This document shows, in pieces, positions 48,225 through 63,593 of a stretch of DNA of 64,000 bases (the stretch's first letter is position 1; each line of letters opens with the position of its first letter). The translations under genes and the position numbers were made by a program. A model generated the notes under the pieces. That model made no database searches. It was not told where the DNA came from and worked only from the letters and a program-made list of their open reading frames with translations. Origin of the DNA: Escherichia phage WPEC5; the sequence record PV654397.1. One strand, 5' to 3'.

Positions 48225-48270
48225 TGATGAAATAATTATAGCAAAAAGGGCCGACCGAAGTCAACCCTTT
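48225..48270 (-). promoter_or_regulatory. fused terminator/promoter module (type C)
   Basis: Minus strand hairpin GGGUUGAC-UUCG-GUCGGCCC (G.U pairs) + T-run; stem TTGACT serves as -35, then TATAAT and conserved ATTTCATCAAC. Confidence 0.55.
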
Positions 48271-48274
48271 TGTT

Positions 48275-48595
48275 TTATAAAATTACTTCACCAAAAATGC
48301 CATTGATATCACGTTCAATGATGTATTCACCTTCATGTTCTTCTAAGAACTTTTTAATGGCTTCATTAACTTTAGGACGATGCATGTTGTTGAATGTTTC
48401 AGTACATCCGTCACCTTTTTCATAATAACCACTTTTGTGATGTGGATTACCGCAGAACGCAATTGTATGTGTAATACGTTCTAACTCAGCAGCAAGATGC
48501 CCCCCATTGTCTTTGTTAAAGAAAATGGAAATTTCATTTTTCCAAAATACTTCAACTTGATATATTTTTTTAAAAGAACTATTAATGCGTTTCAA
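48275..48595 (-). CDS. C-terminal domain of repeat-protein gene (track start is an in-frame TTG)
   Basis: Frame stays open upstream through one repeat unit (..VTIIDPDFGEFQITPNAFLRGQGHP..) until the inverted segment near 48776. Confidence 0.45.
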   Translation of the reverse strand: MKRINSSFKKIYQVEVFWKNEISIFFNKDNGGHLAAELERITHTIAFCGNPHHKSGYYEKGDGCTETFNNMHRPKVNEAIKKFLEEHEGEYIIERDINGIFGEVIL

Positions 48596-48775
48596 ACGCT
48601 TATCGTTATCACCTGCAATACCGGCTTTATCTGATTCATTATATACATCGTTATGTATATAATAATAAGCTGTTTTGTCTTTTTTAAAACCACTTGGTGT
48701 TCTGTTCGGATGTCCTTGTCCTCGAAGGAATGCATTAGGTGTAATCTGAAACTCACCGAAATCAGGATCAATTAT

Positions 48776-49078
48776 AGTTACATCTAAAAAAACAACAGAA
48801 CAATTTATTAAAGACGCGAAAGAAAAAAGAACTGATATTGATTTTGAATATAGTAAAGTTCTTTTTAAGTGGTAGTGGGCATCCTATCCGTGGTGGTTCA
48901 TCTAAAAAAACAACAGAACAATTTATTAAAGACGCGAAAGAAAAAAGAACTGATATTGATTTTGAATATAGTAAAGGTAAAGCCAATTATATTAATGCAT
49001 ATACAAAAGTAACTATAATTGATCCTGATTTCGGTGAGTTTCAGATTACACCTAATGCATTCCTTCGAGGACAAGGAG
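48776..49078 (+). repeat. inverted segment of the repeat array
   Basis: Same repeat unit encoded on plus strand here, on minus strand on both sides; junctions fall inside repeat units. Confidence 0.6.
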
Positions 49079-49477
49079 AACTCACCATATTCAGGATCTA
49101 TAACAGTTACTTTTGTTTTGTTATTAACATAGTTAACTTTACTATATTCAAAATCAATATCAGTTCTTTTTTCTTTCGCGTCTTTAATAAATTGTTCTGT
49201 TGTTTTTTTAGTTCGGATGTCCTTGTCCTCGAAGGAATGCATTAGGTGTAATCTGAAACTCACCGAAATCAGGATCAATTATAGTTACTTTTGTATTTGG
49301 CTTTACTATAATCATAATTAATATCAGTTCTTTTTTCCTTTCCTTCAGTGACGAATTGCTCTGTGGTTTTCGATTGTAATTTAATCTGGTCTTCAATTGC
49401 TCGTTTCGGATGTCCTTGTCCTCGAAGGAATGCATTAGGTGTAATCTGAAACTCACCGAAATCAGGATCAATTATAG

Positions 49478-49774
49478 TTACTTGGCTTTACTATAATCAT
49501 AATTAATATCAGTTCTTTTTTCCTTTCCTTCAGTGACGAATTGCTCTGTGGTTTTCGAACGTAATTTAATATTTTTTTGAATTGCTCGTTTCGGATGTCC
49601 TTGTCCTCGAAGGAATGCACTAGGTGTAATCTGAAACTCACCGAAATCAGGATCAATTATAGTTACTTTTGTATGTGCACTAACATAATCAACTTTACTA
49701 TAATCATAATTAATATCAGTTCTTTTTTCCTTTCCTTCAGCGACAAATTGTTCTGTGGTTTTTTTAACAGACAT
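49478..49774 (-). CDS. repeat-protein N-terminal fragment (98 aa ORF)
   Basis: ATG with GGAAAGGGG SD; two repeat units then frame break. Confidence 0.4.
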   Translation of the reverse strand: MSVKKTTEQFVAEGKEKRTDINYDYSKVDYVSAHTKVTIIDPDFGEFQITPSAFLRGQGHPKRAIQKNIKLRSKTTEQFVTEGKEKRTDINYDYSKAK

Positions 49775-50003
49775 TACTTAAAACCCCTTTCCAGTACTGA
49801 ACCCGTCCAGCACCATTAATCTTAGCTTGAATCTTATCTTTTTCGACAAGACCTTCTTTGAAATCAATGGAAGTATTATCGCACTGAATTACATCTAAGT
49901 CAAGTACTTCTTGTGTACTTAATGAAGTATTGTCTGCAATTTGTTGTAAAGTAATGATATCAGTACCGAAGAATTCTGCTAATCGTATAAAAGATAGTTT
50001 CAT
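49764..50003 (-). CDS. hypothetical protein (79 aa)
   Basis: ORF; fused terminator/promoter module upstream (~50015-50066). Confidence 0.5.
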   Translation of the reverse strand: MKLSFIRLAEFFGTDIITLQQIADNTSLSTQEVLDLDVIQCDNTSIDFKEGLVEKDKIQAKINGAGRVQYWKGVLSNVC

Positions 50004-50017
50004 GTATTACCTCTTGA

Positions 50018-50066
50018 GTTGATGAAATAATTATAGCAAAAAGGGCTGACCGAAGTCAACCCTTTT
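50018..50066 (-). promoter_or_regulatory. fused terminator/promoter module (type C)
   Basis: GGGTTGACTTCGGTCAGCCC hairpin, TTTTTGC, TATAAT, TATTTCATCAAC. Confidence 0.55.
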
Positions 50067-50072
50067 TATGTG

Positions 50073-50405
50073 CTATTGTTTTACACCACCCCACTTTTCA
50101 TAGATCGATAAAATTTTTTCTAAATTAGTGATTGTAGTTGTTTCTGTATATCCATCTGGCATTTCTTTTTTAGACAAGATACCATTACCAAATAGTCTCT
50201 TGCATTCTTTTTCTGCTTCCTTACAATTTATCACAGTTGGGAAACTATATACACAAATTAGTTTTACTTTAAATAATGATTTTTTATTTTGTTGCTTAAC
50301 ACGTTTTCCTTTTTGTTTTTCAATACCATATTTTAAAGCAATAGGTAAATCGTTGTCTGAAATAATGTTAACATATGCATATTGCTGGGAATAACCTGCA
50401 CGCAA
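50073..50405 (-). CDS. C-terminal domain following repeat array (110 aa ORF)
   Basis: ORF; homologous to the 48275-48595 tail (YAYVNIISDN.. vs AYYYIHNDV.., GYTETTTI vs GCTETFNNM). Confidence 0.4.
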   Translation of the reverse strand: MRAGYSQQYAYVNIISDNDLPIALKYGIEKQKGKRVKQQNKKSLFKVKLICVYSFPTVINCKEAEKECKRLFGNGILSKKEMPDGYTETTTITNLEKILSIYEKWGGVKQ

Positions 50406-61820: not shown

Positions 61821-61890
61821 ATTACACCTCCGTAAAATAATGTTCTGTACTGCTATTATTTACAGAGAATATCTGAAAAATTGATCTAGA

Positions 61891-62115
61891 TCATTTTTTA
61901 GTCACTTTACAATTTGAATCTTTTTTGTACTGAACAATCACATTGTTCTTAAGGAAGATGATGGTCCCATAGGAACCTTGGGCTGCAACTTCAACAATAT
62001 GGTTCTTATATGTTTCAGTGTACCCTTCCATCTCGTTGACACACACTACATGATACTTTGGTTTAGCACATACAACAGTACTCAAGAATAGCAGTACTAG
62101 TACTAGATATTTCAT
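61891..62115 (-). CDS. putative secreted protein (74 aa)
   Basis: Signal-peptide-like MKYLVLVLLFLSTVVCA; AAGGT SD; hairpin upstream. Confidence 0.5.
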   Translation of the reverse strand: MKYLVLVLLFLSTVVCAKPKYHVVCVNEMEGYTETYKNHIVEVAAQGSYGTIIFLKNNVIVQYKKDSNCKVTKK

Positions 62116-62165
62116 TTTATTACCTTATAAACAAGAACAGGAATCCTTTTACGGATTCCTATAAT

Positions 62166-62459
62166 TTAGTCCTTTAATGTACCATTGTGTAAACGATTAT
62201 ACACATCATTGCGACGCAATTCAACAATATCTTCAGCGTACTTCATTGTAAACGCCCATGCTTGTGGATGCACATTAAGCTTCATACGAATGCGATTCTT
62301 CATCAATTCACCGCTTAGGCGAACAAACTCATGAACACCACGACTTCCGTACTCTGAAATCAAATCATTGATGTACATGTTGCGAAGGGTTTCGTCTGTA
62401 CATTCTTTGACCATTTCTACGTCTGCCACGATGCTTGCATTTACTGAAGTACTGATCAT
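62166..62459 (-). CDS. hypothetical protein (97 aa)
   Basis: ORF with AAGGT SD. Confidence 0.5.
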   Translation of the reverse strand: MISTSVNASIVADVEMVKECTDETLRNMYINDLISEYGSRGVHEFVRLSGELMKNRIRMKLNVHPQAWAFTMKYAEDIVELRRNDVYNRLHNGTLKD

Positions 62460-62470
62460 TTTAAGTTACC

Positions 62471-62737
62471 TTATTTGAATTGGACTGTAATTTTATCACC
62501 TTCAACTACGAACTTACAGTCGTAGCGACGGGCCATATCCATATACATATGCTCAGAATACCACGGAACATCAATAACTGGATGCTCTGCGTATTGTAGC
62601 ACTTCACGGTCACCAACAGTAGTGATGACGAAAGGAATGTTCATCTCTCGCAAAAACAACTCAGCACCTGGTGAACGATTGACAAACTCAGTGTCGTTAC
62701 GCAAAGTAAAACCATTGTATTGTAATTTAAGCTTCAT
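62471..62737 (-). CDS. hypothetical protein (88 aa)
   Basis: ORF with GAGGAT SD. Confidence 0.55.
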   Translation of the reverse strand: MKLKLQYNGFTLRNDTEFVNRSPGAELFLREMNIPFVITTVGDREVLQYAEHPVIDVPWYSEHMYMDMARRYDCKFVVEGDKITVQFK

Positions 62738-62751
62738 GATTATCCTCTAAG

Positions 62752-63108
62752 TTAATACCATTCTTTTAAACCATCAAGTTCGGCTATGTGAGTAATTATA
62801 ACACAGATAACACTCAGGTCAAGCATTATTTGCTCATAATTTAATTTTATTCTATCATCATTGTATGCTCGAAAAACAACATCAAAGTCAAAGTAGTTAT
62901 CGTTTTCATCATTCATTGGAATGATTCTATATCTACGTCTACCATCATCATTGAATACAGTCAAACACTGTTTGAATTTCTTCATTAACTGTGTAGTCAA
63001 TGCATTGTAATATGCAACATCATATTGTGTACAACGTGGGTCATTGGGTAGATAAAACGATACAAATTTTTTTAATTCTATTTGAGTCTTATCCATATAC
63101 AGCCTCAT
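62752..63108 (-). CDS. hypothetical protein (118 aa)
   Basis: ORF; start overlaps end of upstream gene, start uncertain. Confidence 0.45.
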   Translation of the reverse strand: MRLYMDKTQIELKKFVSFYLPNDPRCTQYDVAYYNALTTQLMKKFKQCLTVFNDDGRRRYRIIPMNDENDNYFDFDVVFRAYNDDRIKLNYEQIMLDLSVICVIITHIAELDGLKEWY

Positions 63109-63529
63109 GTATTACTCTTTTACTTTGGCGGTACTCATCCTTTGCTTCTCTCACTGACATGATACGAACCAGATTGGCACTACCACAATAGTACTGAACC
63201 TGACTACGACCAATGTCAACATGATTATCAGGAACTTCATATACTGATACAGCAAACCCTGCACGATGTAATTTACCCAAGTCCATAGTAAAGAACTTAA
63301 ACAAATCATTCAAACTCTGACAGCCAAATGCCCAGCCACGTTTGATTGAATAGATTCCATCTTCAGTTGGTTCTGGTTGGAATTGCGAAGGCGTGGTCAT
63401 GCACAAACGGTCAAATCCATTTTTAGTACTGTATCGTGAAGAGTACCGTGCGAACGGCCCTACTGTTTTTGCTGGATCTAAGTTAGGTTCAATATAACTG
63501 AATTTAAGTTCAAAACGATATACGTACAT
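63089..63529 (-). CDS. hypothetical protein (146 aa)
   Basis: ORF; fused module and GGGGA SD upstream. Confidence 0.55.
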   Translation of the reverse strand: MYVYRFELKFSYIEPNLDPAKTVGPFARYSSRYSTKNGFDRLCMTTPSQFQPEPTEDGIYSIKRGWAFGCQSLNDLFKFFTMDLGKLHRAGFAVSVYEVPDNHVDIGRSQVQYYCGSANLVRIMSVREAKDEYRQSKRVIHEAVYG

Positions 63530-63544
63530 AATTAAAATCCCCAG

Positions 63545-63593
63545 TAGTTGATGAAATAATTATAACAAAAAAGGTTGACCGAAGTCAACCTTT
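63545..63593 (-). promoter_or_regulatory. fused terminator/promoter module (type C)
   Basis: GGTTGACTTCGGTCAACC hairpin, TATAAT, TATTTCATCAAC. Confidence 0.55.

Follow-up and report, generated by a model that had tools for sequence, protein, structure and literature searches.

Promoter-early stem-loop (PeSL) cassettes are known from T4-type phages, having been described in RB49 and phi1 (Arbiol et al. 2010, PMC2839356) and in PST/T4 and nt-1/KVP40 (Comeau et al. 2014, PMC4122927). As promoters, the RB49/phi1 PeSLs give about 13,000 Miller units, and their stem-loop reduces expression of a reporter to much the same extent as rrnB T1 (PMC2839356). Five subclasses are distinguished, one being the stem-loop overlapping the -35 (Arbiol et al. 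2010, PMC2839356).

Here we describe a new example of these cassettes, a repeat unit of about 50 bases that lies between early genes of a 121Q/PBECO4-like jumbo coliphage (Asteriusvirus; 99% identity to phage Turkey3). The window, which is the whole 64-kb stretch of DNA analysed, holds 13 copies, all on the minus (coding) strand. An earlier note on this DNA had likened the repeats to the promoter/stem-loop cassettes of T4-type phages, and the likeness holds: a subclass overlapping the -35 is among the PeSLs listed (PMC2839356). As in PeSLs, the units are intergenic and carry an A/T-rich upstream run, sigma-70-like -35 and -10 elements and a G...C stem-loop with a putative terminator role, followed by a Shine-Dalgarno sequence and a start codon. 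They also cluster in variable regions, ahead of small genes without known function, and often at indel borders between relatives. The carrier differs, being an Asteriusvirus (a 121Q/RaK2-like jumbo phage) and not a T4-type phage of those papers. A uniform design (one register, 8-bp stem, UNCG loop, 18-bp spacer) contrasts with the mixed registers of RB49/phi1 PeSLs, most often between the -35 and -10 or over the -10, and the roughly 13 copies occupy two regions only, against about 50 per RB49/phi1 genome. Mini-circles and promoter and terminator activity were shown experimentally for PeSLs; the units here are described from their sequence.

Other systems share parts of the design. Like C(UUCG)G intrinsic (Rho-independent) terminators, the units have a G+C-rich 8-bp stem (11-13 bp with the A/U extension), a 4-nt UNCG loop and a U-run, with a core stability of -11 to -12.7 kcal/mol; unlike canonical intrinsic terminators, their 5' arm is constrained to a -35 hexamer and their U-run is curtailed by the TGn-TATAAT of the next promoter. 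The RpoD-like early promoters predicted in CBB and GAP32 occur in the same RaK2-like clade and the same early small-gene regions, with a TTGACA/TATAAT-type consensus and an upstream A-rich element, but those reports list promoters and terminators apart and do not describe an overlap (PMC5259590). Lambdoid morons, with their own promoter and terminator, are likewise self-contained expression units, gained or lost without disturbing their neighbours (PMC1524935). In contrast to morons, the apparent terminator of one unit and promoter of the next form a single fused repeat here, and neither a distinct base composition nor a host origin was seen among the units.

Results

The anatomy, pairing, covariation, strand asymmetry, spacing and gene context of the units, and the comparative breakpoints near them, are direct observations. 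All nine minus-strand sites of the earlier note are present within 48225-63593, the coordinates given there being downstream ends. Its count of 'at least nine' also stands, and a search of the window adds four variant (class B) minus-strand copies at 1.4-11 kb (1460, 3720, 6998 and 11015). Searching with GGGYTGACTTCGGTCRRCCC at up to 3 mismatches returned 14 matches against 0.01 expected. A covariance model, scanned over the window with filters off, recovered exactly 13 copies at 46.8-67 bits; beyond these it found only antisense shadows (at most 26 bits) and chance-level weak matches (at most 19 bits). The order within a unit is A-run, stem GGGUUGAC/GUCRRCCC, U-run, TGn-TATAAT, predicted start at the A of CAT, and leader with a Shine-Dalgarno sequence. 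Neighbouring genes are small and mostly uncharacterised.

The class A units, all on the minus strand, are typified by that at 48228-48275, with A-run, hairpin 48248-48267 (GGGTTGAC-TTCG-GTCGGCCC), U-run, TGn, TATAAT at 48235-48240, predicted +1 at 48228 and a downstream gene start at 48206. At 50023-50070 the hairpin (50043-50062) is followed by TATAAT (50030-50035), a predicted +1 at 50023 and an ATG at 50003, and at 56915-56962 the hairpin (56935-56954) by TATAAT (56922-56927) and an ATG at 56895. The unit at 51896-51943 (hairpin 51916-51935, TATAAT 51903-51908) has a leader unlike the other copies and precedes an HNH-endonuclease-like gene (51168-51860); the stop of the ORF upstream is the TGA within TTGAC (51929-51931). 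Two units have a UUCA loop: 52619-52666 (hairpin 52639-52658, TATAAT 52626-52631), upstream of denV (52160-52597), and 59958-60005 (hairpin 59978-59997), whose TATAAT (59965-59970) is without TG and whose downstream 37-aa ORF starts at 59917. At 63552-63599 the hairpin (63572-63591, AGGTTGAC...GTCAACCT, A-U closing pair) is followed by TATAAT (63559-63564) and an ATG at 63529, and the upstream ORF again stops at the TGA within TTGAC.

Two of the nine main-region copies, also on the minus strand, are without the early promoter, and they bracket the virion structural gene at 57646-59157. Upstream of it, the copy at 59179-59225 joins a hairpin (59198-59217) to a weak TATACT at 17 bp and a late-type (T4-late-like) TATAAATA at 59179-59186. 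Directly after the gene, at 57609-57644, stands a bare hairpin (57617-57636; AGGTTGAC-TTCG-GTCAACCT, then seven T) with no -10 hexamer. Strong promoters without a hairpin lie at 54474-54501 and 62795-62822. Hairpin and promoter are thus separable, and the earlier claim that they form a single unit, while backed by the sequence evidence, is not general.

The class B copies (GGATTGAC-TCCG-GTCAGTCC) lie on the minus strand at 1441-1487, 3701-3747, 6979-7025 and 10996-11042. The first has a short U-run, TGn and TATTAT at a 17-bp spacer, and a 188-nt leader carrying CCCACAGGGTGC and a second promoter. The next two share its layout, with leaders of 167 and 272 nt, and the last has a U-A closing pair (TGGTTGAC...GTCAGCCA) and a 166-nt leader.

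Alignment of all copies, as the earlier note had proposed, gave pairing in 104 of 104 stem cells (8-bp stem, 13 copies) and two covarying pairs, the closing pair (G-C/A-U/U-A/G-U) and the third (G-C/A-U). The TTGAC bases of the stem are invariant, though other stems would fold equally well; position 4, earlier written as U/C, is always U on the minus strand. A UUCG tetraloop, described as common to all, occurs in 7/9, with UUCA in the other two and UCCG in the four variants. Positions 4-17 and 5-16 alternate between U-A and U-G among copies, and the opposite-strand fold is therefore 4-7 kcal/mol weaker in 10 of the 13 hairpins (minus, -11 to -12.7 kcal/mol; plus, -5.1 to -7.5). Proper folding on the minus-strand transcript only, as had been claimed, is seen in six of the nine and all four variants when both strands are folded; the hairpins at 57617, 59198 and 63572 fold nearly equally well on both.

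Class A units have 5-7 U within 8 nt after the stem, in a run broken after five U, and class B units no more than three or four. Termination may therefore be incomplete. An upstream A-run is able to pair with the U-run. In the annotation of phage G17, ARNOLD terminators (-13.5 to -17 kcal/mol) fall on exactly these hairpins. The presence in each unit of a hairpin resembling an intrinsic terminator is supported by its sequence.

The -35 TTGACT consists of five stem bases and the first loop base. It had been placed 17-18 nt upstream of a TATAAT; this hexamer is found in seven of the nine copies, at an 18-bp spacer (one base above the optimum), the exceptions being the 59198 and 57617 hairpins. 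Promoter-bearing copies have 11/12 consensus matches with TG and a fixed 18-bp spacer. The 'GC' reported before TATAAT belongs to an extended -10 (it is the Gn of TGn), which six of the seven promoter-bearing copies of the nine possess. In 10/13 copies transcription is predicted to start at the A of CAT, and the layout continues with a leader of 20-23 nt that has a Shine-Dalgarno sequence; ATTTCATCAAC is exact in four copies and partial in two. The palindrome after the -10, GTTGATGAAAT, had been suggested to be an operator or a leader hairpin. The sequence does not support this reading: the motif covers -6 to +5 of the predicted promoter, and 121Q/G17 lack it at the orthologous position. It is better read as an A/T-rich discriminator, a C(-1)A(+1)T start and the opening bases of the leader. 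These elements support a unit that joins the terminator-like hairpin to a predicted sigma-70-type promoter with its -35 in the stem.

Scanning A+T-rich viral contigs for the hairpin pattern, with no -10 specified, gave 72 copies, with a UNCG tetraloop and always a U-run after the hairpin. TAnnnT stands at 17-18 bp in 59 of them, against an average of 2.9 in displaced-position controls, and 52 of the 59 match TATAAT in at least 5/6 positions. A pyrimidine follows at position 6 after the -10 in 56 of these 59 promoter-bearing copies, and A at position 7 in 51. A second scan, in which only TTGACTTCGGTC...TAWWAT was specified and the outer stem could vary, gave 77 sites, of which 57 were paired at each of the five free stem positions. 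The outer stems differ (GGG/CCC, CCC/GGG, CAC/GTG, TAG/CTA, GAG/CTC); 82.5% of cells were paired versus 66.2 +/- 1.3% in shuffles, and the covariation score of 0.458, against 0.176, was reached by 0/500 shuffles. The design of a -35 inside a UUCG hairpin, with covarying stems, is thus found in many phage lineages in the viral contigs. It is almost absent from bacterial genomes, where the hairpin occurs only a few times, mostly as a plain terminator. About 45 nt of sequence is shared by unrelated phage families, and KVP40 has three copies of this hairpin with UACG/UGCG loops, followed by TATTAT. In the window, 121Q, RaK2 and CBB alike, denV is preceded by a unit, orthologous positions being kept across genera, and the genes downstream of units cluster only within a given phage clade, never between clades. 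The related phages PA5oct (PMC7318152) and CBB (PMC5259590) use host polymerase and TTGAC/TATAAT promoters. A search of the accessible literature on this phage group turned up neither mapped RNA ends (5' or 3') nor reporter or transcriptome data.

Five breaks in homology with 121Q, G17 and fEgEco12 fall no more than about 25 nt from a unit (48271-48293, 50065, 52673, 59223, 59954), and the block between two units at 59224-59953 is replaced in 121Q/G17. About 5 of 13 breakpoints fall at units, far above the roughly 5% of sequence that units occupy. Around a quarter of intergenic regions carry a unit, and unit-linked breaks are not clearly above the expectation for breaks simply falling in intergenic regions.

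Discussion

We think it likely that the units, as cassettes of the PeSL type, each give host RNA polymerase a composite 'stop-and-restart' signal in early-gene regions; from the features described we infer termination, initiation and recombination by the units. RNA from the upstream gene would fold into the 8-bp G+C-rich stem with its C(UUCG)G tetraloop, which pairing of the A-run with the U-run may lengthen. Hairpin and U-run would make a canonical intrinsic terminator, and the upstream transcript would end just before the -10. The duplex DNA would present a strong sigma-70 promoter, with the A-run in the UP-element position, the -35 TTGACT, an 18-bp spacer built from the 3' arm and U-run, the TGn extended -10 and TATAAT; from the A/T-rich discriminator and CAT start, a new mRNA would begin with its 20-23 nt Shine-Dalgarno leader. 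Because the terminator would act in the transcript and the promoter in the duplex, the same bases can serve both. If so, each small gene block would have its own insulated early transcript, and early read-through would be excluded from late genes embedded in the region, such as the virion gene at 57646-59157.

A hairpin serving chiefly in RNA protection or processing, whether by stabilising processed 3' ends or by marking an RNase III/E boundary, rather than in polymerase release, is improbable. UUCG-capped stems are very stable 3' protectors, class B U-runs are weak and 121Q has a gene for a T7-0.7-like kinase whose annotated targets are RNase III/E. However, RNase III requires a stem longer than 8 bp, the U content after class A stems and the overall geometry are those of an intrinsic terminator, and a new promoter right behind each hairpin makes most sense if transcription had stopped.

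The strand asymmetry bears on whether the units are only promoters, with the inverted repeat acting as DNA (a cruciform, or an operator palindrome bound by a phage or host protein). In 10 of the 13 copies, stem pairs are retained as G-U wobbles whose counterparts on the other strand would be C-A mismatches, which points to folding of the sense strand in single-stranded form. Across phages, moreover, the stem stays paired even though its outer sequence is entirely different, contrary to the expectation for a site recognised by a protein; the loop is a UNCG tetraloop, always followed by a U-run. Points in favour are the overlap of the repeat with the -35, where operators typically sit, the near-perfect DNA palindromes of three copies and the PeSL authors' speculation on a DNA-binding protein (PMC2839356), but we regard this explanation as highly improbable.

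We give equally little credence to the repeats being primarily mobile or recombinational (dedicated recombinase sites, miniature mobile elements or homing-endonuclease targets), with a secondary regulatory appearance. The breakpoints and swapped cassettes, the adjoining endonuclease genes, the 45 nt common to unrelated families and the PeSL mini-circles demonstrated in RB49 (PMC2839356) speak for it. Counter to this, neither a recombinase nor a terminal-repeat structure is associated with the units, the positions are kept across genera, as at denV, the downstream genes cluster within clades only, and a transcriptional explanation is available for nearly every conserved base.

Least probable of all is a terminator role alone for the hairpins, with promoter-like hexamers arising as a by-product of A+T-rich intergenic DNA and downstream genes served by read-through or other promoters: related records (G17, UE-S1, GAP32, Muenster) annotate only terminators here, two copies lack the early -10 and the few bacterial occurrences are mostly plain terminators, but the exact 17-18 bp spacing in 59 of 72 independent phage copies, the pyrimidine-A start at the canonical distance, the TG in six of seven copies and the unvarying TTGAC all argue against it.

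Alongside the proposed stop-and-restart function, the units may have a secondary and less certain role, in which direct repeats of 45-50 bp, being near-identical, would serve as points of homologous exchange, so that blocks between units could be swapped among relatives. Other homology breaks lie inside genes (52194, 57203). Homing-endonuclease genes adjoin units (51168-51860 in the window, an HNH gene in fEgEco12 and gene 221 in 121Q) and could be the source of some indels.

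Genomic distribution of the unit

We find that the 13 copies of the minus-strand repeat are best explained, from their sequence, as PeSL-type composites of an intrinsic terminator and a sigma-70 early promoter, built to a uniform design in an Asteriusvirus (PeSL, the promoter-early stem-loop cassette of T4-type phages). The records that match the window come from the 121Q/PBECO4 group of jumbo coliphages (genus Asteriusvirus), at 85-99% identity; by megablast, the stretch 48000-64000 shares 99.2% identity with phage Turkey3, 98.7% with fEgEco12 and 85-88% with 121Q, G17 and PBECO4. 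GC skew, open reading frames and the fEgEco12 annotation divide the window into three parts, in which small, mostly uncharacterised minus-strand genes at 1-21 kb and 44-64 kb flank a plus-strand array.

Searching the window with the hairpin consensus at up to three mismatches returned 14 matches against 0.01 expected. The nine minus-strand sites reported in the earlier note are all among them, and form class A (named by hairpin start: M48248, M50043, M51916, M52639, M56935, M57617, M59198, M59978 and M63572). Four further minus-strand matches, at 1460, 3720, 6998 and 11015, form class B. A covariance model built from the window copies and four copies of other phages, scanned across the whole window with filters off, recovered exactly these 13 copies (46.8-67 bits), the four that the note does not list included; its only other matches were the antisense shadows of these copies, scoring 26 bits or less, and weak ones at chance level, scoring 19 bits or less. 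All 13 units are confined to the two minus-strand small-gene regions. In 121Q, seven of the eight hairpin-pattern copies fall in a single such region. The plus-strand array at 22000-44000 comprises about 13 tandem paralogous genes of about 1.1 kb each, annotated in fEgEco12 as 'chromosome condensation regulator / DNA condensation protein', and the model scan found no hairpin unit in it.

Hairpin and predicted promoter share the same bases

Alignment of all copies gave the class A consensus AAAA-GGGTTGAC-TTCG-GTCRGCCC-TTTTT-GC-TATAAT-TATTTCATCAAC. The stem has 8 bp, and standard pairs occupy 104 of 104 cells across the 13 copies. The closing pair is G-C in nine copies, A-U in two, U-A in one and G-U in one, and the third pair is G-C in 10 and A-U in three. 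At stem positions 4-17 and 5-16, U-G alternates with U-A; the 5' partner is invariable because it is the TT of TTGAC. These U-G pairs become C-A mismatches on the complementary strand. By ViennaRNA, the 20-nt core folds at -11.0 to -12.7 kcal/mol as minus-strand RNA, and at -5.1 to -7.5 kcal/mol on the plus strand in 10 of 13 copies. The proposal that pairing is correct on the minus strand only fails for three of the nine class A sites, where the two strands fold with almost equal stability.

When the A-run and U-run on its flanks are included, the helix extends to 11-13 bp and to as low as -19.5 kcal/mol. The loop is a UNCG tetraloop, UUCG with C-G closure or, for class B, UCCG, except in two copies with UUCA. 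An A-run of 4-8 lies 5' of the stem; of the 8 nt on its 3' side, 5-7 are U in class A copies, compared with 4-5 in class B. These are the features of an intrinsic terminator: a G+C-rich hairpin whose loop has 3-8 nt, with a U-run directly 3' of it, on the transcribed strand and at a gene end. [quoted passage not shown]

The -35 hexamer, TTGACT, consists of stem positions 4-8 and the first loop base. It is followed at 18 bp by TATAAT in seven of nine class A copies and at 17 bp by TATTAT in all four class B copies. TATAAT had been described for every class A site; two copies, M57617 and M59198 (spacer 17 bp), are without an early -10. An extended -10 (TG at -15/-14) is present as TGCTATAAT or TGTTATAAT in six of the seven class A promoters and as TGCTATTAT in four of four class B promoters. 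In those six class A promoters the TG is formed by the last U and the G after the U-run, and the 'GC' once listed as a separate element is better assigned to this TGn. The A of CAT falls 7 bases past the -10 in 10 of 13 copies. Class A leaders contain GAGG/GGAG and run 20-23 nt to the start codon in seven copies, and 36 and 41 nt in the other two; class B leaders are 166-272 nt. Stop codon, UP-like A-run, -35, stem, U-run, extended -10 and -10 are therefore all accommodated within about 50 shared bases.

The conserved motif past the -10

A conserved imperfect palindrome, ATTTCATCAAC, had been proposed as an operator or leader hairpin. The motif is exact in only four copies, and neither role is borne out, because it is a poor palindrome, is replaced by unrelated sequence at the 121Q/G17 site orthologous to M63572 (the last class A copy), and matches the start-site consensus of other phages. 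That consensus has five free bases past the -10, then Y-A-T-C-(A/G)-A-A-C, as in TATTAT-AGCTT-CATCAAC of KVP40. Lying at -6 to +5 of the predicted promoter, ATTTCATCAAC reads as a putative A/T-rich discriminator and a C(-1)A(+1)T start, and then the opening bases of a leader that is very short. It is possible that these initial transcribed bases act in promoter escape or translation.

The same design recurs in other phages

A first scan of IMG/VR used a hairpin-only pattern, GGTTGACTNCGGTCRRCC, with the -10 unspecified. It returned 87 distinct hairpin copies, on contigs assigned to RaK2, 121Q, GAP32, CBB, fHe-Yen9-04, KVP40, Aeromonas phage 65 and Brochothrix phage A9, with further matches in ~150-kb phages and in uncultured contigs of 118 and 161 kb. 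On A+T-rich contigs, 59 of 72 copies have TAnnnT at a 17-18 bp spacer, against an average of 2.9 at displaced positions, and 52 of the 59 match TATAAT at 5/6 positions or better; at least five U follow within the next 8 nt in 60 of the 72. Past the -10, a pyrimidine stands at position 6 in 56 of the 59 promoter-bearing copies, and an A at position 7 in 51 of them. A second scan specified only TTGACTTCGGTC, 11-12 free bases and TAWWAT, leaving five stem pairs unconstrained. It gave 77 distinct sites, 57 of them paired at all five free positions, with diverse outer stems (GGG/CCC, CCC/GGG, CAC/GTG, TCC/GGG, TAG/CTA and GAG/CTC). Across 49 distinct cores, 82.5% of cells were paired against 66.2 +/- 1.3% in shuffles, and the covariation score was 0.458 against 0.176, a value reached by 0 of 500 shuffles and dropping sharply once pairing partners were slid.

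This design of about 45 nt with covarying stems thus occurs in RaK2-like, KVP40-like, Aeromonas T4-like, ~150-kb and even Brochothrix phages. Among 185,579 bacterial and archaeal species (one genome each), the exact 23-mer occurs just 8 times, mostly in plain terminators. Given the TAnnnT spacing, the covariation and the near-absence from bacteria, the placement of a -35 in a UUCG stem is, by sequence comparison, a recurrent, apparently selected and largely phage-specific design in which both halves are constrained.

Variants bracket a virion gene

The two copies that are without an early -10 lie on either side of the gene at 57646-59157, which encodes a 503-aa virion structural protein (PHROG 20398). 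Directly 3' of it, M57617 consists of the hairpin and seven T without a -10. Directly 5' of it, M59198 keeps the hairpin and has only TATACT, then TATAAATA, the T4 late-promoter consensus. This consensus is under-represented in the window, with 3 copies against 12.8 expected, at 59179-59186 and 60421-60428 on the minus strand and 26637-26644 on the plus strand. Both minus-strand copies lie 5' of genes scoring as virion structural, 57646-59157 and 60005-60388. We infer that the hairpins would shield late genes that lie within the early region from early transcription.

Strong promoters without the unit hairpin are found at 54474-54501 and 62795-62822. Because the window holds a hairpin-only copy, a copy that joins the hairpin to a late promoter, and hairpin-free promoters, the two predicted functions, hairpin and promoter, are separable within it. 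Overall, the copies provide a predicted transcription map for two early regions made up almost wholly of genes of no known function, including the putative insulation of embedded late virion genes.

Relation to PeSL cassettes

PeSLs were defined in RB49 and phi1, with five subclasses, one of which has a stem-loop overlapping the -35 (PMC2839356). In these phages they number about 50 per genome, mostly 5' of ORFans, show terminator activity close to that of rrnB T1 and promoter activity of about 13,000 Miller units, and give rise to mini-circles via exchange between neighbours (PMC2839356). The concept was later widened to PST/T4 and nt-1/KVP40 (PMC4122927). Our unit resembles PeSLs in several ways: sigma-70-like -35 and -10 elements at about 17 bp (17-18 bp here); a stable stem-loop, often G-run...C-run, in or beside the promoter, overlap with the -35 being a listed subclass; an A/T-rich run 5' of the -35, with a Shine-Dalgarno sequence and start codon at the 3' end (class B leaders are longer); and clustering in variable regions, 5' of small genes of no known function. 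The difference is that PeSLs were described in T4-type phages, whereas the window phage is an Asteriusvirus, and this is a matter of place of description rather than mechanism.

For RaK2-like phages, RpoD-like promoters with UP-like elements have been listed separately from terminators (PMC5259590). The relative PA5oct depends on host polymerase, and TTGAC/TATAATA motifs have been identified around its transcription start sites (PMC7318152). In GenBank, the G17 record and some others mark the hairpins as terminators. In the literature on Asteriusvirus and RaK2-like phages we found no account of PeSLs, overlapping terminator/promoters, the fused unit or transcript mapping, and the papers on fEgEco12, phAPEC6, UE-S1 and RaK2 do not discuss promoters. 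Rfam (gathering thresholds over the whole window; E-value mode over 1-21.5 kb) and ARAGORN returned nothing relevant. The unit extends PeSL-type fused cassettes from T4-type phages to the RaK2/121Q jumbo-phage clade, where existing annotations give terminators only or promoters only. Class B, the late-promoter and hairpin-only variants around the virion gene, the reassignment of 'GC' and the downstream motif, and the covariation across phages go beyond both the earlier note and the PeSL papers.

E. coli polymerase often remains on DNA after RNA release and can reinitiate nearby (PMC6978380; PMC10372574). We should consider, as a long shot, that the tight fusion does more than save space and serves as a phage-wide device for 'transcript punctuation', with termination mechanically coupled to re-initiation. 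The -35 in the terminator stem would recapture polymerase that had released its RNA in the U-run, and early RNA would be cut into separate messages without loss of polymerase. Such coupling would explain both the recurrence of the covarying design in phages and its near-absence from bacterial genomes. Since the composite unit is recurrent, covarying and largely phage-specific, it offers a compact, ready-made insulator part and a test bed for coupling of termination to re-initiation.

Exchange and stability among relatives

Orthologous units are present in Turkey3, fEgEco12, G17 and 121Q, with different intervening genes. fEgEco12 is without 48281-52193; the junction on the left is 13 nt 5' of the M48248 hairpin, and that on the right is inside denV. 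Homology to 121Q/G17 is lost at 48271/48293, 50065, 52673 and 59223 and picks up again at 59954; none of these points is more than about 25 nt from a unit. In 121Q/G17 the block 59224-59953, which lies between M59198 and M59978, is replaced, an exact exchange of one cassette between two units. Further breaks sit at gene boundaries that carry no unit (49768, 56484, 61529 and 62057) or within genes (48469, 52194 and 57203). PeSLs are described as bordering indels and replacements between close relatives; here, about 5 of 13 breaks fall at units, which make up about 5% of the sequence, an enrichment with binomial p ~5e-4 against length that is not clearly significant against a null of any intergenic region. 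For this reason we treat a role in recombination as secondary. Class A neighbours are direct repeats of one another, identical over 45-50 bases, a length that suffices for phage recombination systems (PMC2839356). Homing-type endonuclease genes beside units (an HNH-like gene at 51168-51860 on the minus strand, directly after M51916, an HNH gene before the denV unit of fEgEco12, and 121Q gene 221) may account for some indels.

Two further features of this region were noted. denV (52160-52597, minus) encodes 145 aa in the window and Turkey3 and 171 aa in fEgEco12 and 121Q, and the break at 52194 lies in its 3' end. Genes between M48248 and M51916 contain tandem repeats of 150-200 bp (49212-49668 and 50565-51486).

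Different genera of the RaK2-like clade keep units at orthologous genes, for example upstream of denV in the window, 121Q, RaK2 and CBB. Transfer of gene and unit together between families is not supported, because the proteins downstream of 128 units form clusters within single phage clades only. In the light of both patterns, the near-identical hairpin in different families would most simply reflect either convergence, the design being under tight constraint, or spread of nothing but the short signal.

The promoter-proximal element and other motifs

A second repeated feature is an element with an invariant CCCAYNGGGTGC, about 15-25 nt past the predicted start site. By the first C of CCCA, it lies at 1426, 3681, 6964, 9320, 10976 and 18542 on the minus strand and at 16071, 18474 and 20578 on the plus strand; the four class B units would each drive one. 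It is usually preceded by a small hairpin of variable stem (GGC/GCC, GAG/CTC, GAC/GTC, GCA/TGC or ACCG/CGGT) and followed by ...GTATCTAT, then an A/T-rich stretch with AGTACT. Every RaK2-like phage sampled carries it (RaK2, 121Q, GAP32, CBB and uncultured contigs). The element has no Rfam match, RNAalifold gives only an invariant 4-bp mini-hairpin, and testing gave no sign of a long-range closing helix (mean z -0.13). Possibilities include a protein-binding RNA hairpin (nut/boxB-like), a small-RNA family or a DNA site.

An apparent stand-alone RNA gene of about 95 nt lies at 16015-16150 on the plus strand, in a 244-nt gap between two minus-strand neighbours. It comprises TTGACA, CCAGTACTGGCATAAT, a CAT start, the CCCACCGGGTGC element and a terminator, GGGGAG-ttattat-CTCCCC with a T-run; similar terminated copies occur in RaK2 (L068). 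At 18399-18620, two CCCAYNGGGTGC units face each other with convergent promoters (elements at 18474 plus and 18542 minus), and the predicted transcripts of about 100 nt would therefore be fully complementary. The pair is kept in CBB (L025, 8771+/8802-) and in the uncultured relatives L030, L042 and L062.

Downstream of every class B unit, past its CCCAYNGGGTGC leader, lies another promoter of sigma-70-like type (AGTACTTGCA, 17 bp, TATAAT), then a GGGG...CCCC leader hairpin and a ribosome-binding site (minus strand, 1240-1440, 3520-3700, 6700-6980 and 10820-10995). The tandem promoters are separated by 100-130 nt, and of the four copies three nearly duplicate one another.

AGTACT occurs 273 times in the window against 21.6 expected from base composition (12.6-fold), most densely at 1-30 kb; the next most enriched palindromic hexamer reaches only 3.2-fold. 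The excess extends into long genes (82 against 7.3 at 22-44 kb). All sampled pieces of RaK2-like phages show it, at 7-19-fold, whereas KVP40, Aeromonas 65, Brochothrix A9 and other phages with the hairpin unit do not. AGTACT often lies in promoter spacers next to the -10. CAGTACTG occurs 61 times against 1.1 in shuffles, and a full-text search for it returned unrelated primer sequences only. On the minus strand, the intergenic stretch 54474-54501 is a perfect TTGACA/TATAAT promoter with CAGTACTG in the spacer and a GGGGATGA...TCATCCCC leader hairpin. Two other minus-strand hairpins, likewise intergenic, also meet promoter elements: at 9860-9908, a 12-bp hairpin, CAGTACTATTGA-caacgt-TTGATAGTACTG, contains TTGACA, with TATAAT directly 3', and at 61554-61576 a 10-bp terminator-like hairpin has TATAAT across its loop and the adjacent stem bases.
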